Origin: a virus
Lineage: Duplodnaviria; Caudoviricetes
Virus record (IMG/VR): IMGVR_UViG_3300005077_000176
Span: 1-26,550 of that record
DNA length: 26,550 bases
Strand: one strand, 5' to 3'
Below the pieces are notes generated by a model, which saw only the letters and a list, made by a program, of their open reading frames with translations, ran no database searches and was not told the DNA's origin. Each line of letters begins with the position of its first letter. The first letter of the stretch is position 1. Shown in pieces: positions 5,539 through 24,158 of this stretch. Both the position numbers and the translations under genes were made by a program.

Positions 5539-5570
5539 CTTCAATCAATTTGGATGGCTAAATGCAAAAA
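5539..5570 (-). promoter_or_regulatory. Putative phage late promoter (copy upstream of tail tube)
   Basis: TTTTTGCATTT-12 nt-TGATTGAAG, one of six equally spaced copies. Confidence 0.75.
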
Positions 5571-7721: not shown

Positions 7722-7753
7722 CTACAATCGAAGTTCGATCTAAAAAGTAAAAG
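7722..7753 (-). promoter_or_regulatory. Putative phage late promoter (copy upstream of head-tail adaptor)
   Basis: CTTTTACTTTT-12 nt-CGATTGTAG. Confidence 0.7.
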
Positions 7754-10556: not shown

Positions 10557-10588
10557 CTTCAATTGATTACGCACAGAAAATGCAAAAA
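10557..10588 (-). promoter_or_regulatory. Putative phage late promoter (copy upstream of the protease-capsid unit)
   Basis: TTTTTGCATTT-12 nt-CAATTGAAG. Confidence 0.75.
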
Positions 10589-12547: not shown

Positions 12548-12579
12548 CTTCAATCGAATGGGAGCTTCAAAAGAAAAAA
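12548..12579 (-). promoter_or_regulatory. Putative phage late promoter (copy upstream of portal)
   Basis: TTTTTTCTTTT-12 nt-CGATTGAAG. Confidence 0.72.
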
Positions 12580-14644: not shown

Positions 14645-16447
14645 TCACTGCCACACCAGCGGGAATGGAATCGCCTCCATCCAGACCCTTTCGTGGGCTT
14701 GATATTGGCGCAACTGGTCTTTGGGCACCTCAGACAGGAGCGCGATGATTTGGCGAGTCGTTTCGGCATCAACGACTTCGCTTTGCTCAGGTGCTTCTGG
14801 ATTGTCCGTGGATTTCGACCCGCCAATCACAGCCATCTTCAGACCTTTCCCCCGGTCGATCTCGATAGCGGTCAGCATATACAGCCAGGCGTGCGCCAGG
14901 TGATCAGCCCGGAGTTTTCTCCAAACGCCTACGGTGGTCTCACCCGCTCTGCTTTTACGGGTTTCCACATCTCGTTTCAGCGCTGTTACCTGGTCGATGA
15001 TCAATTCGACATCCGGATGAAGGGCTGGCGGCGAACCGGGGAGTTGAAACTTACCATTCTTGATCTCAGCCATCAAGTGATCCATACCGGATGTGCGATC
15101 GATGGTCACATTGGTCTTCACGTTGCCAAGTTTTGTCGAACCGGCTTTCGCATTCCAGATCTGCTTCTGTTCGATATAGTCTGCAACCAGGAAGCGGCCC
15201 GGAAACTGGTGGACCTGCTCGATCATCCCGTGCCGGTTTGGATTGGCATCGCCTACTGCTTTGCGGACGTGAAAAACTTCCATCAGCTGGCTGAGCCTTC
15301 GGAATCCCCGTTCCATCGGGACCAGTTCAACATGCACGATCCTTGGCCGGCGGGAATTTGGAGGCACTTTGCAGATCAGAACCTGCAGTTCGTTACCCTG
15401 ATCGACGCCGAGATAGTATCCAGATTCGCCATCCCACCCCGGCTCGAACTCATAAGGCTCGTCAAAACAGGCCGCCAGAAAATCATCCCGATCCAATGAA
15501 CCGCCCCCGATCTCATAGGGCTTTCCAAGCCGTTTTCGATAAAACTCGACCAGCCTGGTCGTGGGATCCCGGAAAATCTTGTGCAGTTCGTCCGCTGGCG
15601 TAGTCAGCATCTGGTGGACATGGAATCCGACCAGGTCATTCGACAGGTCAGGATGTTGCGCAACCCACCGGCCCGTTTGCATGTGTGCTACGGTGATCTC
15701 GGCATTGCAGGAAGCACAACCGTAGAATACTTTATCTGGGCGCATCACCGGACCGACGACTCGCAGGTTGCTCTCCCACTCGATCGGCTGTTCGTATCCG
15801 CATTTCGGGCACTTGACCAGCCATTCTCTCATATCGGACGCGCCGTAGATCCCATGCACACCGAAGTTCGGAACAGTCGGTGTGGAGAGATAGTTGACGA
15901 TCTTCCAGCGAGACGCATCCAGACGGTTAATCGCCGTAGCCATGTGTTCCTGGTCGCTTAAATCGACTTCGTCCACCAGCAGCATGTCCGCTGGCATCAT
16001 GCGGGGTTCGGTGGTCAGCTCCATGAAGAACAGGTAACTGTCGCCGATCCGTTTGGAGTGAGCGCTGTCGGGACTGCCAAGTTTTGAGGACAGATAGGTC
16101 GACGCCCGGATCATCGGGTCTACCCGGGTGGCGACCAGGTCCAACAAGTCCTGCTGGCGTGGGAGCGTGTAGAACACACGCACCGGCCAGTTCGTGGCAA
16201 AGTGGAGCATCCTGACCATGGCCCAGGTGGATATTCCGGCCTGGGTCGACTTGGTTACGACAACCCTTCGGGCGTGTTCGGACGGGTATTTTTCGATCAG
16301 CCAGGGGTTTGCGGTCTGATAGATTTCTGTAGCCCAGGCACGAGTGCCGACCTCCCATGTCTTTCCATCCAGCAGATCCACATAGGAGATCCCAAACGCA
16401 AGGGGATCCCGCCTGGCCAGGCTTGTAATTTGCTCAGATAAGTTCAT
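14645..16447 (-). CDS. terL: Terminase large subunit (GpA-like ATPase plus nuclease)
   Basis: Walker A-like TKSTQAGIS, Walker B LLVDEVD, coupling motif YLSTPT, CPKC/CASC zinc site, and nuclease motifs LGVDQG and DHLAHA. Confidence 0.95.
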   Translation of the reverse strand: MNLSEQITSLARRDPLAFGISYVDLLDGKTWEVGTRAWATEIYQTANPWLIEKYPSEHARRVVVTKSTQAGISTWAMVRMLHFATNWPVRVFYTLPRQQDLLDLVATRVDPMIRASTYLSSKLGSPDSAHSKRIGDSYLFFMELTTEPRMMPADMLLVDEVDLSDQEHMATAINRLDASRWKIVNYLSTPTVPNFGVHGIYGASDMREWLVKCPKCGYEQPIEWESNLRVVGPVMRPDKVFYGCASCNAEITVAHMQTGRWVAQHPDLSNDLVGFHVHQMLTTPADELHKIFRDPTTRLVEFYRKRLGKPYEIGGGSLDRDDFLAACFDEPYEFEPGWDGESGYYLGVDQGNELQVLICKVPPNSRRPRIVHVELVPMERGFRRLSQLMEVFHVRKAVGDANPNRHGMIEQVHQFPGRFLVADYIEQKQIWNAKAGSTKLGNVKTNVTIDRTSGMDHLMAEIKNGKFQLPGSPPALHPDVELIIDQVTALKRDVETRKSRAGETTVGVWRKLRADHLAHAWLYMLTAIEIDRGKGLKMAVIGGSKSTDNPEAPEQSEVVDAETTRQIIALLSEVPKDQLRQYQAHERVWMEAIPFPLVWQ

Positions 16448-16453
16448 CGCCGC

Positions 16454-17275
16454 CTATGTTTCACTTCCAAAATCGTAATCACTCACGGCGTTAATCGTTC
16501 CATGATCCAACATGAAGGTAACTTCATACGCAGAAGTGGTCATGCCATGCCGGGTGGATAGGTGGGTCTGCATGTTCTTTATTCGTTTTCCGCAGATCGA
16601 GCACAGCATCCCATCTTCATCCTTATCCGCCTTTCCGAACGCTCCGTAGAATGGCTCGCCGTTTTCGTCAAGGACAGGGCCGGTTGCATCGAGCTTTGGA
16701 TCGATGACTCTGTACACAGCTTCGATAGGTTCCTGGTCTGCATTTCTAACCTGTGCATTGAGCTGCTGCGCCAGGTAATCCAGGGCGTTTTCCTGGGCTT
16801 TCATCACGGTTTCACCCAGTTCGTGGGTTACCGTTATGCCCTGCTGTTGTTGGGCCGCGAAGATGCCGATAAAGTAGCGCGCCTGGGCAGCCAGCACGGT
16901 GAGCACCTTTGGATCTACCCGGGCACCAGCATCGGTCTGGCCGTCAAGTCCAACCTCAAGTATCTCTTTCGATCGGATGATTGCCGTCAGGAAAAGCTGC
17001 TCAAGCTGCGCCAATCGCCATTTCGACAACAGCTTTCTGTTGTCTGCGACCGCTGCCGCAAGCGCAGGGTATTTATTCAACCACATTCGAACCGTTTGCC
17101 TGGTAACCCCCAACTTTTTGGCTACATCTGCTTGAGAAAAACCGGCGAGCATTAGTTCTGCCGCGCGAATGACATCTTCCGGAGCCTCCCCCTCGGACAA
17201 ACTGTCCGTGATTCGCTCAACGATAGCCGCCCAGGTTTCCTTCTCGTCTGCTTTCACCAACGGATTATCGGCCAT
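16454..17275 (-). CDS. Probable terminase small subunit: N-terminal HTH plus C-terminal Ros/MucR-like zinc finger
   Basis: HTH (FSQADVAKKLGVTRQTVRMWL), helical middle and C-terminal CSICGKRIKNMQTHLSTRHGMTTSAYEVTF. Lies immediately upstream of terL. Confidence 0.75.
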   Translation of the reverse strand: MADNPLVKADEKETWAAIVERITDSLSEGEAPEDVIRAAELMLAGFSQADVAKKLGVTRQTVRMWLNKYPALAAAVADNRKLLSKWRLAQLEQLFLTAIIRSKEILEVGLDGQTDAGARVDPKVLTVLAAQARYFIGIFAAQQQQGITVTHELGETVMKAQENALDYLAQQLNAQVRNADQEPIEAVYRVIDPKLDATGPVLDENGEPFYGAFGKADKDEDGMLCSICGKRIKNMQTHLSTRHGMTTSAYEVTFMLDHGTINAVSDYDFGSET

Positions 17276-17292
17276 GTTCTTCTCTCCATCAC

Positions 17293-17324
17293 CTACAATC
17301 GCTTCTGGTGCGGTAAAGCAAACA
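17293..17324 (-). promoter_or_regulatory. Putative phage late promoter (copy upstream of terS)
   Basis: TGTTTGCTTTA-12 nt-CGATTGTAG. Confidence 0.72.
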
Positions 17325-17326
17325 AT

Positions 17327-17356
17327 ACTGACAAACCCACTGATCTCTTTGTCAGT
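17327..17356 (-). terminator. 9 bp inverted repeat; probable terminator of the regulator operon, or a protein-binding site
   Basis: ACTGACAAA-12 nt-TTTGTCAGT, followed on the minus strand by ATTGTTTGCTTT. Confidence 0.5.
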
Positions 17357-17391
17357 CTGGTGACAGCTTGAGGTCCTACCGGCAGCCGCAG

Positions 17392-17640
17392 CTACTCAGC
17401 GCCTGGCTTACGAGCGCCCCTTCCATGGTTGGAAAGTGGCCGATCGCTCAAGGGTACTTCAAATTCGGTGATGCGCCGGTCTCTTCTACGTTCTCTCTGA
17501 ATGTCAGACCACAAATAGCGTAACCAGTCCGGCCAGTCGTAGGGGCTTACTCCATACCTTTCTTCACAACTTCTGCATAAAGCGAATTGCCAGGTAACCA
17601 CTTTTCCACATCCGCCGATGCACCGGTGGACTTCGCTCAT
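17392..17640 (-). CDS. Small Cys4 zinc-finger protein with a Trp/Arg-rich helix, 82 aa
   Basis: Start revised to ATG 17640 (ATGA overlap with the sigma4 gene stop). Contains CIGGC and CRSC, then DWPDWLRYLWSDIQRERRRDRR. Confidence 0.75.
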   Translation of the reverse strand: MSEVHRCIGGCGKVVTWQFALCRSCEERYGVSPYDWPDWLRYLWSDIQRERRRDRRITEFEVPLSDRPLSNHGRGARKPGAE

Positions 17641-17852
17641 GATGGAACCTGTGTCATCAGTCCACGAAGAAGTGTGACTGCTCGCTTGTAAATGATCCCA
17701 ACGGCTGATCGGGTCATTCCGATGATGAAGCCACATTCCCGTTGGGTATACCCCGCCAGGCGAAGGGTGAGTACTACCTTCTCCTTGACGGGCAGTTTAT
17801 CTACAGTCTCTTCGATTGCCAGCCTGCTTTCCAATTTTTCACCAATATACAT
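17637..17852 (-). CDS. Stand-alone sigma70 region 4 (HTH) protein, 71 aa
   Basis: VDKLPVKEKVVLTLRLAGYTQRECGFIIGMTRSAVGIIYKRA matches the ECF sigma region 4 pattern. SD GGGAGG. The promoter directly upstream leaves no room for region 2. Confidence 0.85.
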   Translation of the reverse strand: MYIGEKLESRLAIEETVDKLPVKEKVVLTLRLAGYTQRECGFIIGMTRSAVGIIYKRAVTLLRGLMTQVPS

Positions 17853-17888
17853 TCTACCTCCCTGAGATTTTCGTAAGTTACGCTAATT

Positions 17889-17917
17889 ATTATAGCATAA
17901 TCATTCTAAAAACACAA
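17889..17917 (-). promoter_or_regulatory. Host sigma70-type promoter for the sigma4/Zn-finger pair
   Basis: TTGTGT-17 nt-TATAAT with an extended TG. Confidence 0.8.
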
Positions 17918-17926
17918 GCAGAAAAC

Positions 17927-17955
17927 TTGACATATTCCAACTAATAAAATATAAT
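17927..17955 (+). promoter_or_regulatory. Consensus sigma70 promoter for the ssb operon
   Basis: TTGACA-17 nt-TATAAT, an exact consensus. Confidence 0.93.
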
Positions 17956-19700: not shown

Positions 19701-19774
19701 AGTGGGAGTTGGGAGAATTACGGACTCGCGTCACTGCCTTATGTGTTGCTATAGTAATAAGGAGTTATATAATT

Positions 19775-21088
19775 ATGAACTATATCAGCCTGTTCACCGG
19801 CATAGGAGGATTTGACCTGGCGCTTGACGATCTTGGGATGAACTGTGCCGGTCAGTCCGAGATCGATAAACAGTGCATCAGCGTTCTTCGCCACCGTTTT
19901 TATCGCACTAAACAGTTAGGAGATATCCGTGGAATCAGTGCAAACAGCATCAACCCTGGTTCAATTGACCTTGCCGTTGGGGGATATCCTTGCCAGGGGA
20001 ACTCTGTCGCCGGAAAGCGAAAAGGACTTGCTGACGAGCGATCTGGACTCTGGTTCGAATTTAGAAGATTCATCATGGAACATCTTCCAAGATGGTTCCT
20101 TATCGAAAACGTCACCGGTCTTCTGTCCGCCAATGCAGGCTTCGACTTTTCAGTCCTTGTCGGAGGACTTACCGGGGTCATTCCTGCAGTTCCAGACAAA
20201 GGCTGGAAGTCTGCGGGATACGCAACAGGCAGCCCTGATCTCTACAACATCTCTTGGCGGGTGCTGGACTCTCAGTATTTCGGAGTCCCCCAACGCCGCC
20301 GTCGGGTCTTCATTGTCGGCCATCTTACAGACCCCTACGCCCCCGCAGAAGTACTTCTTGAGCGCAACGGCCTGCCTTGGGATCATCAAGCGGGCGCTGA
20401 AGAAATCCAAGAAATTCCCGCCCTTCCTTCTCTTGGCGCTCTCTTATTCAATTCTTCATCAGGGGACACCGGAGCAGATCGCTTCGCTGCAGGAACGGTT
20501 ACCCCATATCCAGGCGAAATCGCCTACGCTGTAAATGGGGTCGGTTCAAAGTTCGGTTCTGGCCGGCATAACCAGGACACCTTTATCGTCTACCACAACA
20601 AGCAGCAATCCGGGGAGATCAGAGCATACGAAAACTATTCGCCTGCAGTCACCAGGCAGTGGGGAACCGGCGGAAACAACGTCCCGTTTCTCGTTGATCG
20701 CGCCCCTGAACAGCATGTCTTCAGCCCTCACAGTCACTATATCTACCAACAGGATGGCTTTGTCAATACGCTCCAGAACCGGCAAAACCGCCAGGATGGA
20801 TCGATGACGCTGATCGCATCCAGAGCAGGCGCTGGTGCTGAGAACTGGCGTGAACTTGGGTTTTCGGATGACGAAGAATATGCGGTTCGCAAGCTCACGC
20901 CCACGGAATGTGAGCGCCTGCAGGGATTCCCCGATGATTTTTCCAGATGGGGAGTTGGTAAAGATGGAAAGCTAGTCGAAATCTCCGACAGCGCCCGTTA
21001 TCGCATGCTTGGGAATGCCGTTACTGTGCCTGTTGTGCACTGGATTGCCAGCAGGATTGTTGCATACGACCGTGTTTTTCGATTGTAG
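19775..21088 (+). CDS. C5 cytosine DNA methyltransferase, 437 aa
   Basis: Start revised to ATG 19775 (SD AAGGAG). Motifs I SLFTGIGG, IV GGYPCQ, VI ENV, VIII QRRRRVF, IX RKLTPTECERLQGFP and X GNAV are present. Confidence 0.96.
   Translation: MNYISLFTGIGGFDLALDDLGMNCAGQSEIDKQCISVLRHRFYRTKQLGDIRGISANSINPGSIDLAVGGYPCQGNSVAGKRKGLADERSGLWFEFRRFIMEHLPRWFLIENVTGLLSANAGFDFSVLVGGLTGVIPAVPDKGWKSAGYATGSPDLYNISWRVLDSQYFGVPQRRRRVFIVGHLTDPYAPAEVLLERNGLPWDHQAGAEEIQEIPALPSLGALLFNSSSGDTGADRFAAGTVTPYPGEIAYAVNGVGSKFGSGRHNQDTFIVYHNKQQSGEIRAYENYSPAVTRQWGTGGNNVPFLVDRAPEQHVFSPHSHYIYQQDGFVNTLQNRQNRQDGSMTLIASRAGAGAENWRELGFSDDEEYAVRKLTPTECERLQGFPDDFSRWGVGKDGKLVEISDSARYRMLGNAVTVPVVHWIASRIVAYDRVFRL
19929..20534 (+). CDS. 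Overprinted +1-frame protein inside the methyltransferase (beta-polypeptide-like)
   Basis: 201 codons open in the alternative frame. GTG is preceded by AGGAG at 6 nt. The protein contains SLSAILQT...QKYFLSATACLGIIKRA. Confidence 0.7.
   Translation: MESVQTASTLVQLTLPLGDILARGTLSPESEKDLLTSDLDSGSNLEDSSWNIFQDGSLSKTSPVFCPPMQASTFQSLSEDLPGSFLQFQTKAGSLRDTQQAALISTTSLGGCWTLSISESPNAAVGSSLSAILQTPTPPQKYFLSATACLGIIKRALKKSKKFPPFLLLALSYSILHQGTPEQIASLQERLPHIQAKSPTL
21057..21088 (+). promoter_or_regulatory. Putative phage late promoter (plus-strand copy upstream of the resolvase)
   Basis: TTGTTGCATAC-12 nt-CGATTGTAG, overlapping the last methyltransferase codons. Confidence 0.6.
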
Positions 21089-21430: not shown

Positions 21431-21455
21431 CAAGATCAGCCATAAATCACCTTTG

Positions 21456-21479
21456 AGCGGGCCGATCGGCTCGCTTTTA
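21456..21479 (+). terminator. Intrinsic terminator after the resolvase
   Basis: AGCGGGCC-GATC-GGCTCGCT followed by TTTAT. Confidence 0.65.
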
Positions 21480-21500
21480 TGCTCTCTACAGGAGGCGAAC

Positions 21501-24158
21501 ATGGATTATGGATTTTATAGCCTGGGTCACCCCGACGAAACTGCGCTGAACATCTTGAAAAAGCGCTACTTTTGGCCTGGGGAAACCTACTGGGATGACG
21601 TTGTCAACCGGGTTATGACCCATGTGATGGGTGATGAACCTGCCGAGGTATACTACCCGGCCTACCAGATGCTGTTAAATCGCTACTTCATCCCGAACAG
21701 CCCTGTTCTTTTCAATGCTGGCAGACCGGATGCCGGGCTTTCCGCCTGCTTCGTGGTGGACATGCCAGACGATATCAACGGGATCATGAAGACGTTCAAC
21801 GACTTCGTAATGATCTGCAGGAAGGGCGGAGGGGCAGGGGTGACCTTGTCTAAACTTAGACCGGAGGGTTCTCCGGTTGCGGGGTCAACCCACGGGTACG
21901 CCGGCGGGCCGGTCAAGTTCTACAACGCCCTCTGTCAACTGATGGATGTCATGGCGCAGTCTGGCAAGCGCCCTATGGCACAGATGGGCACGATGAGCGT
22001 GTTTCACCCGGACATTTTGAAGTTCATCAATGCAAAGTCCAAAGAAGGTGTGATGGCGACGACAAACATCTCGGTCGTGGTCAACGCCGACTTTATGAAT
22101 GCTGTGCTCGCAGACGAGACCTACTGGACGGAATTCAAAGGTGTGCGCTATGAGGAGCTGCGTGCCCGGGATGTCTTTGGGGCAATTGTGGAAGGCGCAT
22201 GGCGTAACGGTGAGCCAGGCCTGTTGTTCGACGAAAAGCTAAACAGCGGTCCATACGCAGTCACCGGTCAGGAGATTCTTGCATCCAATCCCTGCTTCAC
22301 GGGCGAGATGCGCTTGCTTACGGCAGATGGTTACAAAACATTCTCGAAACTTAATGGTACCACCTTCCAGGTTATTACACCCACTGGCGAAACCAGCTCA
22401 TCTACGGTTTGGTTTTCTGGCAACAAGCCGGTTGTGAAAATAAAACTAAGTAATCGCAAGGTAATCGAGGCCACGCCGGATCACGTCTTTGCGCTTGCGG
22501 ATGGCTCCAGTTGTCAGGCCGCAGACCTTACCGGGAAGAAACTACAGCCATACCTAAACCGACCGATACTGGATGAGCGCTTTACTTTATGCGGGTTTGC
22601 CCAGGGGGACGGGCAGTTGACAAGGCTCAAGTCTGGCACACACAAGGGTGTAGAAGTGAATATAGGCGCTAAGGATCAGGATATCTTGTTTCTGCTTGAT
22701 CCACAAGAGTACACGGTGGCAAAGGATGGTCGCCGCATCTATGTGAACAGTGGCTTTAGAGATGAGTTGGTCAGACTCGGTTTTTCGGAAAAGGTGCTTC
22801 CTGAAAGAACTTTTCCGGCTACGTACAGCACCTGGGAACTGGGAGAAAAGGCTGCTTTCCTTCGGGGGTGTTTCTCAGCAAACGGCTGCGTTATCAAAGG
22901 TTCACGGGTCGCTTACAAGACTACATGTAAGCAGTTTGCCAATGAGCTTATGAACACGCTGCTTGTTGACTTTGGGATCAAGTCACGCATAACGACGAAC
23001 AAGGCTAATAAAGTAACCTTTCCTGATGGCACGTACCTGTGCCGTGAATCGTATGACGTAAATATCGGGCAGTATGAAAGTCTTCTGAGGTTCTATAACA
23101 AGATCAACTTTGTCCAAGAGTACAAAGTGGAGGACTTATCTTCTCTGATCGATGGACGTGCCTTTCGGGTCACATCGGTAACGCCTATTGGCAACCGGGA
23201 TGTCTATGACTTTACTGAGCCGACTACGCATTGGGGCGTTGTGGAAGGCGTTGTTGTGCACAACTGCGGGGAGATGCCTCTTCCGCCGAACGGGGCATGC
23301 AACCTGGGAAGCCTGGATATCTCGAAGTTCCTGCAGGACGGTAAGCTGGACTATGACCTGTTGCGCCGGGCAGTTCAATTGGCGGTAGTGTTTTTGGATA
23401 ACGTAGCGTCTGTGAGTTCGTACCCAACTCCTGAAATTACGGCGTGGGTAAGGGACAACAACCCGGTTGGTTTGGGGATCATGGGGTTTGCCGATTATCT
23501 GCTGAAGATCGGGGTCGCCTATGGGTCAAAGGCATCATTGAAAGAACTGGACAGCATCATGGGGTTTATTTACGGAGTTGCGCATGAAAAATCCCAGGAA
23601 CTCGGCAAGATTCGAGGCTACCCAAAAGCGTGCAGAAAGCTGTCTTCCATGCGCAGGAACATCACTCTGCTGACCATAGCCCCGACCGGCACAATCTCGC
23701 TTATAGCGGGCTGTTCTTCTGGTATTGAGCCGGTGTTCTCCGAGATCACGCTGCGCTCGGACAATACCGGGACTTACCAGATCACCCATCCGTATGCGGA
23801 TGAGCGCCACTTCCGCTGTGCGGTTTCTGCAAACGGGGCAAAAGAAGTAACCTGGCAGGAGCACCTGGCAGTTCAGAACGCCGCCCAGGAGCATGTGGAT
23901 AGCGGGGTATCCAAAACCATCAACCTGCCCAACAACGCTTCCAGAGGCGCAATCTGGAATGCGTTCGTCGCCGCATGGAAATCTCCCTATATCAAGGGGG
24001 TCACGGTGTATCGAAACCAGTCCAGAAAGGCCGAGGTGCTTACGCCGAAGAATTTGAAGGAAGACCTGGATCTCTGCCCGGTGTGTGGGGAGGCGCTGGT
24101 AAGAGAGGGCGGGTGCACTCACTGCTCGTCGTGTGATTACTCATTATGTTCGATATAA
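21501..24158 (+). CDS. nrdJ: Class II (B12-dependent) ribonucleotide reductase containing an intein (885 aa precursor, about 561 aa spliced)
   Basis: Start revised to ATG 21501 (SD AGGAGG). Motifs PNSPVLFNAG, LSACFV, GEPG, NP-(intein)-CGE, CNLGS, TIAPTGT and SKTIN, plus a C-terminal CPVC...EGGCTHCSSCDYSLC. No ATP cone and no nrdB nearby. Confidence 0.93.
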   Translation: MDYGFYSLGHPDETALNILKKRYFWPGETYWDDVVNRVMTHVMGDEPAEVYYPAYQMLLNRYFIPNSPVLFNAGRPDAGLSACFVVDMPDDINGIMKTFNDFVMICRKGGGAGVTLSKLRPEGSPVAGSTHGYAGGPVKFYNALCQLMDVMAQSGKRPMAQMGTMSVFHPDILKFINAKSKEGVMATTNISVVVNADFMNAVLADETYWTEFKGVRYEELRARDVFGAIVEGAWRNGEPGLLFDEKLNSGPYAVTGQEILASNPCFTGEMRLLTADGYKTFSKLNGTTFQVITPTGETSSSTVWFSGNKPVVKIKLSNRKVIEATPDHVFALADGSSCQAADLTGKKLQPYLNRPILDERFTLCGFAQGDGQLTRLKSGTHKGVEVNIGAKDQDILFLLDPQEYTVAKDGRRIYVNSGFRDELVRLGFSEKVLPERTFPATYSTWELGEKAAFLRGCFSANGCVIKGSRVAYKTTCKQFANELMNTLLVDFGIKSRITTNKANKVTFPDGTYLCRESYDVNIGQYESLLRFYNKINFVQEYKVEDLSSLIDGRAFRVTSVTPIGNRDVYDFTEPTTHWGVVEGVVVHNCGEMPLPPNGACNLGSLDISKFLQDGKLDYDLLRRAVQLAVVFLDNVASVSSYPTPEITAWVRDNNPVGLGIMGFADYLLKIGVAYGSKASLKELDSIMGFIYGVAHEKSQELGKIRGYPKACRKLSSMRRNITLLTIAPTGTISLIAGCSSGIEPVFSEITLRSDNTGTYQITHPYADERHFRCAVSANGAKEVTWQEHLAVQNAAQEHVDSGVSKTINLPNNASRGAIWNAFVAAWKSPYIKGVTVYRNQSRKAEVLTPKNLKEDLDLCPVCGEALVREGGCTHCSSCDYSLCSI
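22293..23264 (+). mobile_element. Intein with a LAGLIDADG-type homing endonuclease, 324 aa
   Basis: Begins CFTGEMRLLT, has block B ATPDH, endonuclease motifs LCGFAQGDG and AFLRGCFSANG, and block F VYDF. Ends GVVVHN followed by Cys. Confidence 0.96.

Follow-up and report, generated by a model that had tools for sequence, protein, structure and literature searches.

A stand-alone sigma region 4 protein and its zinc-finger partner: a candidate two-subunit late sigma factor in a tailed phage

Introduction

What does a tailed phage do with a sigma region 4 that stands on its own, encoded in one operon with a small zinc-finger protein directly before the terminase genes? The stretch of DNA analysed here (the window) is a complete virus record of 26,550 bases and represents a tailed-phage fragment, i.e., a partial genome. 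Its minus-strand arm encodes terminase, portal, protease, capsid, tail tube and tape measure, its plus-strand arm ssb, RNase H, an HNH protein, a methylase, a RusA-like protein and ribonucleotide reductase, and the two small genes form the start of the minus arm. The initial annotation had suggested that the two miniproteins together reprogramme the host RNA polymerase to a bipartite motif located before late genes. The features of the central region are the following:

17889..17917, minus strand: putative host-type early promoter of the gene pair, TTGTGT-N17-TATAAT with an extended TG (promoter function proposed from the sequence)
17637..17852, minus strand: gene 1, stand-alone sigma region-4 protein, 71 aa (Sigma70_r4_2, PF08281, E 1.2e-6, above the cut-off)
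17392..17640, minus strand: gene 2, Cys4 zinc finger, long helix and FEVPLS strand, 82 aa (alignments, AlphaFold2)
16454..17275, minus strand: probable terminase small subunit (HTH; terS), with Terminase_5 and phrog_309 matches, located 3' of gene 2 in relatives
14645..16447, minus strand: terminase large subunit (GpA_ATPase, E 4e-25)
17927..17955, plus strand: divergent consensus sigma70 promoter (TTGACA-17-TATAAT, 12/12 match) before the ssb/replication arm

A close relative of this phage sits on a 256-kb contig in the genome of an uncultured Chloroflexia bacterium, and since the ORFs common to at least three phage records are confined to the region of this contig past 160 kb, we consider it a prophage. 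The host lineage of the prophage is likely Chloroflexota, and by analogy the host of the window's own phage would belong to the same phylum. Among 401 genomes searched from the host phylum this prophage was the only one found, in a sample that does not show absence from others, and the 50,697 annotated phage records searched gave no match.

Results

The gene pair

Gene 1 had been described as a sigma region 4 and nothing else, and this description holds. Region 4 is the sole domain detected in the protein, which also matches phrog_351 (E 8.8e-9) and the C-terminal part of ECF sigma factors from the host lineage (hhalign, 97%), while the top PDB match of the sigma4 family profile is the C-terminal region of FliA. 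The helix-turn-helix that characterizes region 4 in the sigma70 family is thus found in gene 1, and equally in the fused forms described below.

The ATG of gene 2 overlaps the TGA of gene 1 as ATGA. Its product consists of a Cys4 finger (residues 5–30, with Cys7, Cys11, Cys22 and Cys25), a long helix (residues 38–60) and a FEVPLS strand, and contains the stretch DWLRYLWSDIQRERRRDRRITEFEVPLSD quoted in the initial annotation; the AlphaFold2 model (mean pLDDT 78) shows the finger, a short helix at residues 23–29 and the long helix. Although the reading frame stays open upstream to position 17736 (114 aa), homologues share the same start Met and the length of 82 aa is therefore retained, so that size, coupling and finger all agree with what had been read from the letters.

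The proposed resemblance of the helix to ECF regions 2.3–2.4 did not survive. In an alignment with six ECF sigma2 sequences of the host lineage the WL motifs are paired in the expected register, yet the hhalign probability is 0.2 and 14 of 60 permutations score as high (the template alignment being small), and homology to regions 2.3–2.4 is therefore unsupported and was rejected. None of 22 gene 2 family members matched a sigma2 family in Pfam at E ≤1, the family gave no sigma2 match among PDB sequences at E ≤10, and a family of the RsoA type was absent from the Pfam, PDB and hhalign matches of gene 2. A Foldseek search of the PDB with the gene 2 model returned no match at E <0.001, and a VIA-wide fold search listed no sigma2, its best match (Z 3.0, rmsd 6.1, 56 residues aligned) being at a level that excludes nothing. 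By its sequence gene 2 does not qualify as a region 2 of the sigma70 family. It has no Pfam or PHROG match of its own; the weak matches among the 22 family members were to the double zinc ribbon DZR_2 (8/22) and the treble-clef DUF2116 (3/22), and the CsfB family was not among their Pfam matches. The family is nevertheless large, as the gene 2 profile matched 329 clusters at 50% identity (E ≤0.001; 1.84 billion representatives searched), and in the ESM Atlas it hit unnamed viral clusters and no usable named one.

The pair had been placed behind a promoter of host type. Its −35 hexamer TTGTGT agrees with TTGACA in three of six positions, and the promoter scan did not list the promoter; the placement is backed by related loci, 33 of 34 of which have an extended −10 ahead of the sigma4 gene. 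Searches with gene 2 gave 19 viral loci, 30 metagenome loci and one credible genome locus, from which 11 duplicates and four loci (L020, L050, L052 and L053, finger match absent) were dropped for the locus counts. The sigma4 gene lies directly upstream of gene 2 in 36 of 38 distinct loci and in two of two new records that were added from a DNA-pattern search, i.e., in 38 of 40. The two genes are hence an adjacent, co-inherited pair with one region-4 member, as in a split sigma factor, and the co-occurrence anticipated for relatives is found. The sigma4 profile was built in part from the same loci; PF08281, as an independent check, matched in 13 of 15 records. In phage loci terS follows 3' of the pair even where the structural arm is inverted, and a locus search based on terS gave one weak, unrelated match. 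In alignments of relatives mean column identity is 29% for the sigma4 protein vs 46% for the finger protein. A single sigma gene broken by a frameshift was also considered and was rejected, because the split form has sigma4 first and both frames are intact in all loci.

A bipartite motif before late genes

The motif TTTNCWTT-N13-YRATTGWAG occurs in five copies in the window, all on the minus strand and all with a 13-nt spacer, and these precede terS, portal, the protease-capsid operon, a head-tail adaptor-like gene and the tail tube gene. It matched in 0 of 300 dinucleotide shuffles, a post hoc figure as the pattern was derived from the same sites. The core alone is found seven times against a chance mean of 1.56, a number reached in 0 of 100 shuffles. 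The bipartite late motif recognized at the outset is thereby upheld, and a sixth, slightly divergent site joins it on the other strand (fractions give the related records with the core before the same gene):

17293..17322, minus strand: late-type site before terS, TTTGCTTT-N13-CGATTGTAG (motif scan; 2/21)
12548..12577, minus strand: late-type site before portal, directly after a hairpin and T-run (14/16)
10557..10586, minus strand: late-type site before the operon of a 91-aa gene (o91), protease and capsid (9/16)
7722..7751, minus strand: late-type site before the head-tail adaptor-like gene (o187 in the relatives), after a hairpin and T-run (11/15)
5539..5568, minus strand: late-type site before the tail tube gene (10/14)
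21059..21088, plus strand: slightly divergent site before the RusA-like resolvase gene (rusA), GTTGCATA-N13-CGATTGTAG (7/10)

These counts are partly post hoc, as ATTG in the core was relaxed to [AT]TTG, giving YR[AT]TTGWAG, once genome G009 had been inspected. Before early genes the core is rare (ssb 0/18, o95 0/14, hnh 0/18, rnr 0/10, rnh 2/16), and it precedes 154 of 1644 ORFs overall; the conservation of the motif across related phages is thus evident for portal and other late genes. The site at terS, found in just 2 of 21 records, is a local addition of the window's clade. One rusA site (G004) was removed as likely spurious, which reduced the collection from 53 to 52 sites.

The position of the upstream box is fixed, with C 17 nt before the core in 38 of 53 sites and T 20 nt before it in 40 of 53; it is poorly kept in G007 and G010. 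Its sequence is genome-specific: among non-orthologous sites box identity is 0.541 within vs 0.423 between genomes (reached in 0 of 2000 permutations), whereas spacer identity (0.271 within vs 0.270 between) has no genome effect. The window has sites of the type TTTGCATT/ATTG, G009 of the type TGAACWTA/TTTG, and in both G009 and G015 TTTG is present at all sites. A box that is genome-specific at all sites together points to a reader that is specific to the phage. Box similarity tracks terL relatedness, and co-variation between box and sigma4 recognition helix was inseparable from relatedness (partial Mantel p 0.13). Residue 41 of gene 2 seems to go with base 2, as it is Ala in G009, G015 and L042, all with TTTG sites; this link is suggestive but may reflect a single origin, and counter-examples are the Arg41 proteins beside TTTG sites in L039 and L156.

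Several observations bear on the nature of the sites. Eighteen of the 52 come after a hairpin, a placement that fits promoters rather than loading sites for an antiterminator. At some sites the upstream box overlaps the T-run of the terminator. The box resembles the −35 hexamers of early promoters in the same phages (TTGCAT, TTGCTT, TTGACA), so that a host sigma4 could read it. A TAnnnT hexamer follows just downstream in 18 of 52 sites vs 9 of 52 in the upstream control. A pyrimidine-purine step at core positions 13–14, counted from the first core base, is present in 42 of 52 sites and is confounded with ribosome-binding sites, which start at position 14–15 in six of nine o91 sites, the window's own o91 site excepted. 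In the prophage-bearing genome 8 of 22 bipartite matches occur inside a 30-kb portion of the late region, each on the strand of the late genes; on the prophage contig none of the 20 core matches within the host part (160 kb) comes with a TT..C box, vs 7 of 22 within the prophage part. In five genomes of the host lineage the pattern is slightly more frequent than the reversed control.

Search for another reader of the motif

A full-length sigma factor or an RNA polymerase encoded elsewhere by the phage would account for the motif by itself. Since the window's own genome is partial, this point rests on the relatives. Sigma70_r2 was found in none of 15 records, three of which are at least 90% complete, and matched in 10 of 14 control genomes. 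In five records, all among the longest or most complete, models of beta and beta-prime had no match, and the sigma models matched the sigma4 gene and two other HTH regions only. The search for a T7-type polymerase gave no match in the records and none in the controls either. For full-length sigma factors and multi-subunit polymerases the fullest relatives, three of them near-complete, hence offer no other reader. RinA, ArpU and anti-sigma families were absent from Pfam scans of the window and of the gene 2 family. The prophage-bearing host genome, in turn, has nine sigma2-containing genes.

Natural fusions and solo fingers

Nine natural proteins combine finger and sigma4 in one chain: P0006 and P0008, and seven with a C-terminal sigma4 among the 150 listed relatives from the 329 clusters (P0009, P0030, P0032, P0034, P0036, P0076 and P0099). 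Eight of the nine have 150–178 aa, the size of an ECF sigma factor. The order is invariably finger (N-terminal) then sigma4 (C-terminal), as for regions 2 and 4, while the split genes are arranged in reverse. Among the newer fusions Pfam assigned Sigma70_r4_2 in four and GerE in P0099, and P0076 had no sigma4 family match. Most of the 150 listed wider relatives are not fused. The one fused gene seen in context is that of L008, where a gene of 151 aa (finger and helix, linker, sigma4) lies inside the late region and the split pair is present as well; the viral collection yielded no gene neighbourhood for P0008 or P0009. The model of a fused protein reached a pTM of 0.39, and the viral fold library gave weak sigma4/HTH rows only.

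Two loci, L039 and L040, have a finger gene with no sigma4 neighbour in the available sequence. In both the full motif lies beside the finger gene and is followed by a divergently oriented ribbon-helix-helix gene and an AAA ATPase, which links motif and finger in a setting other than a phage late region; L039 also carries an integrase adjoining host genes. The two loci suggest satellite-like elements that would use the late machinery of a helper.

Predicted docking of gene 2 on the polymerase

Gene 2 was modelled with residues 1–512 of a Chloroflexota beta-prime and two zinc ions, next to three controls; beta-prime was taken from relatives of the related prophage's host, not from the true host. 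The complex scored 0.75 against 0.00 for the best of the three controls, and it passed a mark that 116 of 157 solved pairs attain, compared with 2 of 215 mismatched ones (rough counts here, given our own alignments and the ligand). Its runs share at least 88% of contacts with a partner pLDDT of at least 76; the clamp/lid surface has often been solved with sigma and NusG, and the pass may reflect structures that the predictor has learned. The clamp helices themselves are near-invariant. With this reservation, the modelling with the beta-prime clamp helices that had been proposed as a check came out in favour of binding.

In the model W39, Y42, L43, D46, E50 and R53 contact beta-prime 441–461, and residues 60–65 contact 425–431. 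Gene 2 is thus predicted to bind the clamp helices and the lid, which we take to be residues 418–431. The coiled-coil residues for sigma2.2 binding in E. coli are described as R275, E295 and A302 (PMC8321222), and R442, E462 and A469 of the modelled beta-prime have the same spacing, which identifies the site of gene 2 as the clamp-helix site; these three residues fall outside the listed interface and their neighbours inside it. The face of W39, Y42, L43, D46 and E50, the WL residues included, is modelled on the polymerase, in the role of region 2.2, and not on DNA, and D46-x-x-x-E50 appears to have the spacing of the D-x-x-Q-E stretch in host sigmas. The FEVPLS strand meets the lid in the model, like the linker head of ECF factors, in which a helix is reported to run into a strand pairing with the lid (PMC6648896). 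R41, W44, Q48, R51, R52 and R55 form the helix face that points away from the polymerase, and W44, R51 and R52 are invariant in 39 close homologues. Across the 150 listed relatives polymerase-facing positions are kept (W39 in 148, L43 in 113, D/E46 in 113, E50 in 82, E61 in 99) and W44 and R41 vary, as expected if docking uses a constant face and DNA reading a variable one.

Discussion

A candidate two-subunit late sigma factor

The module is real, conserved and previously unannotated, and has strong comparative support together with one strong structural prediction. We consider it likely that gene 1 and gene 2 are the two subunits of a late sigma factor acting on the host RNA polymerase. Both genes would be expressed early from the host sigma70-type promoter. 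Gene 2 would occupy the clamp and lid of beta-prime in lieu of sigma region 2, displacing the host sigma, and gene 1 would bind the beta flap and recognize TT(T/G)(G/A)C(A/T) around −35. YRATTGWAG would be read, and perhaps opened, by the exposed side of the helix (R41, W44, Q48, R51, R52, R55) together with the aromatic loop of the finger. If transcription starts 14–15 nt after the first core base, the core would extend from about −14 to −6 and the box from about −35 to −28, a placement that would correspond to the geometry of a sigma70-family holoenzyme. The pair would act like a split sigma70-family factor; membership in sigma2 is not established for gene 2, given a finger-helix with no detectable sigma2 homology. 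Of the original proposal the reprogramming of the host polymerase is favoured by co-occurrence, the conserved motif, the search for other readers, the fusions and the predicted clamp docking, and the sigma2.3–2.4 homology has to be given up. Whether the pair represents a separately invented sigma class, in which a zinc-finger-helix of about 60 residues replaces the whole of region 2, i.e., docks, reads the box at the −10 position and opens the DNA, and joins with sigma4 as a separate chain or in a fusion of 150 residues, is in our view evenly balanced.

Alternatively, gene 2 might be a clamp-helix competitor that evicts the host sigma and thereby turns off both early and host transcription, or an elongation factor in the manner of NusG or RfaH, with the late sites read by something else. 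We regard this as unlikely, even if the complex model would fit a sigma competitor equally well. NusG binds the same clamp-helix site, a clamp binder needs no contact to DNA, and both the missing sigma2 homology and the many wider gene 2 relatives that stand alone would suit such a role, as would the modelled site itself, which coincides with the sigma2.2 binding site described for E. coli (PMC8321222). It would not explain, however, why the finger was repeatedly fused to sigma4 in sigma order and at ECF size, why W44, R51 and R52, invariant in the close homologues, face away from the polymerase, or why the motif travels with solo finger genes; moreover, the near-complete records yielded no other candidate reader, and the sites come after hairpins, not before them.

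An activator on the host holoenzyme, with gene 1 acting like RinA or Ltr, gene 2 being a co-activator or a CsfB-like anti-sigma factor and YRATTGWAG an activator-binding site preceding a weak host −10, is rather improbable. Nineteen of 21 records are devoid of the motif at terS, and separate sites precede several internal late operons, although the gene pair itself immediately precedes terS, a position also reported for RinA (PMC3152322). The upstream box is identical to variants of the host −35 and TAnnnT follows in 18 of 52 sites, but for a −10 at core positions 8–13 none of the 52 sites would supply the initial T, and the resulting start would fall within the ribosome-binding site in six of nine o91 sites. 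Weak double-zinc-ribbon and treble-clef matches recall CsfB, a treble-clef anti-sigma factor (PMC5890618); against this, RinA, ArpU and anti-sigma families are absent from the Pfam scans, and the predicted clamp binding would exclude the host sigma2. Finally, an alternative sigma factor of the Chloroflexota host as reader of the late sites, with another job for the phage pair, is very improbable, since the nine sigma2-containing genes of the prophage-bearing genome and the mild excess of the pattern in five host-lineage genomes stand against a box, and in two genomes also a core, that changes phage by phage at all sites together, against the confinement of the TT..C box to core matches in the prophage part (7/22 vs 0/20), and against fusions and a predicted clamp binding that would be left unexplained.

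The split or divergent sigma70-type factors compared here keep a region-2-like part for clamp binding and opening. If a zinc-finger helix does that job in the two-subunit factor proposed here, region 2 is not the sole solution for promoter-specific initiation, and the minimal requirements for opening can be tested with two small proteins (71 and 82 residues) or a single natural fusion (150 residues). A finger replacing region 2 would, across 329 clusters, amount to a widespread and unrecognised specificity switch, which satellites may hijack via solo fingers and the same promoter. The pair would further provide a scheme of late-gene control for Chloroflexota phages, comparable descriptions of which we did not find in the open literature, a proposed role for the several hundred unnamed clusters of one family, and possibly a compact, orthogonal transcription switch with natural promoter variants.

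Comparison with known systems

No description of this system was found in the open-licence part of PubMed Central and in bioRxiv; subscription papers could hold one. The remark in the initial annotation that such a switch is not recognised from described phages was too strong, as split sigma factors are known in T4 (gp55/gp33) and SPO1 (gp33/gp34).

Small late regulators and anti-sigma factors resemble the pair in single traits. P2 Ogr is a small Cys4 late activator. Ltr (PMC13123087) is, like RinA, a late activator, and CsfB is described as a treble-clef finger with a helix that acts on sigma factors (PMC5890618). The likeness lies in a small regulator by terS (RinA), a small Cys4 protein (Ogr) and a finger with a helix (CsfB). 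Our pair differs from them in having no family match, several non-dyad sites instead of one operator, and the clamp as its predicted target. RinA and Ltr act on a site directly at terS, where the late motif, the operator sought here, is present in just 2 of 21 records.

The fused forms approach ECF (group 4) sigma factors in size and order, the modelled entry to the lid as a helix followed by a strand resembles the ECF linker head, and the spacing of the two boxes fits that of −35 and −10. In contrast to ECF factors, the gene 2 model has a finger and one long helix in place of the four-helix sigma2 domain, and the split form lacks the continuous linker that was reported as essential for ECF activity (PMC6648896).

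Among phages, T4 divides its late sigma factor between gp55 on the beta-prime coiled coil and gp33 on the beta flap tip; as described there, gp55 is the sigma2 homologue, gp33 is unlike sigma factors and does not read DNA, the late promoters lack a −35 and need the sliding clamp, and no natural fusion was found (PMC2988020). Here the pattern is reversed, as it is the sigma4 half that is the homologue, the promoter has two boxes with a positioned upstream one, and fusions do occur; a sigma2 homologue with a non-sigma flap binder and a promoter devoid of a −35 does not describe the gene pair. SPO1 gp34 is a sigma70-family protein. SPO1 gp33 and gp34 are stated to direct late transcription jointly (bioRxiv 10.64898/2026.10.01.756105) and are alike in being two phage proteins for late transcription, a likeness taken from descriptions.

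Two further precedents are encoded by a mobile element and by a bacterium. Sig7 and Sig8 (Orf7–Orf8) of Tn916 both associate with polymerase and are both needed for one promoter; they form a split sigma factor of a mobile element in which Sig7 resembles region 4, but the preprint likens Sig8 to RsoA and leaves zinc unmentioned, and the system controls conjugation, not phage late genes (bioRxiv 10.64898/2026.10.01.756105). The precedent named at the outset was SigO-RsoA (YvrI-YvrHa) of Bacillus subtilis, in which adjacent genes split the region-4 and region-2 roles and jointly start transcription (PMC8103513), SigO being a protein of 22.5 kDa (PMC10141391, which assigns the two domains the other way round). 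It shares with our pair the two adjacent genes, one of which is a region 4, and differs from it in several respects: the sigma4 half comprises 71 aa here vs 22.5 kDa in SigO, and gene 2 carries a Cys4 finger and is without detectable homology to sigma2. RsoA, for its part, reportedly has a segment resembling region 2.3. What differs in the phage pair is a partner with no detectable region-2 homology, the zinc finger that it carries, and the natural fusions that join it to sigma4.

Variants of the finger-helix module

The finger-helix module, that is the Cys4 zinc finger and long helix of gene 2 and its homologues, was also found fused, duplicated or without its sigma4 partner in the related loci (L-numbers):

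L008, 17269-17724: fused finger-sigma4 gene
L038, 7764-8147: tandem finger-helix duplication within one protein
L039, 5218-10207: locus of a solo finger gene
L040, 3-1507: locus of a solo finger gene

The fused gene of L008 is flanked by methylase and portal genes within the late region of a phage that encodes the split pair besides; it possibly provides a second specificity. Tandem duplication within a single protein likewise occurs in the related proteins P0010 and P0076, the latter having two fingers followed by a C-terminal sigma4-like domain. Both L039 and L040 encode the finger gene without a neighbouring sigma4 gene and, in divergent orientation, an operon for ribbon-helix-helix and AAA ATPase proteins, which is preceded by the full late motif (TTTNCWTT-N13-YRATTGWAG). 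An integrase, an ArdC-like gene and a homolog of the 286-aa structural-region gene of the window are additionally present in L039, which looks like a satellite tapping the late transcription of a helper. Four further proteins (P0069, P0071, P0136 and P0137) carry the module in two different settings: it terminates GIY-YIG and HNH nuclease ORFs, and it begins two proteins of ∼240 aa that also contain an unscored helical region.

Terminase region

The probable terS (window 16454-17275) encodes an HTH at the N-terminus and a ROS/MUCR-like zinc finger at the C-terminus. Around its start we find a cluster of short repeats:

Window, 17100-17450: TGACA/TGTCA repeats, four copies (0.67 expected)

At least four such repeats are clustered near the terS start in 8 of 34 loci (L001, L003, L004, L015, L021, L024, L031 and L036), with a maximum of 14, and the cluster may be a site for packaging or for terS binding. 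The late site of some relatives is located 5' of terL, not terS (L051:11123, L036:1589, L156:3022).

Replication arm

The RusA-like resolvase gene in the replication arm of the window has its own late-type site (21059-21088), which is kept in 7/10 records. The ribonucleotide reductase gene (21453-24158) is interrupted by an intein with a LAGLIDADG domain. A 201-aa ORF (19929-20534) overlaps the C5 methylase gene (19772-21088) on the same strand in another frame, an arrangement also found in some split methylases.
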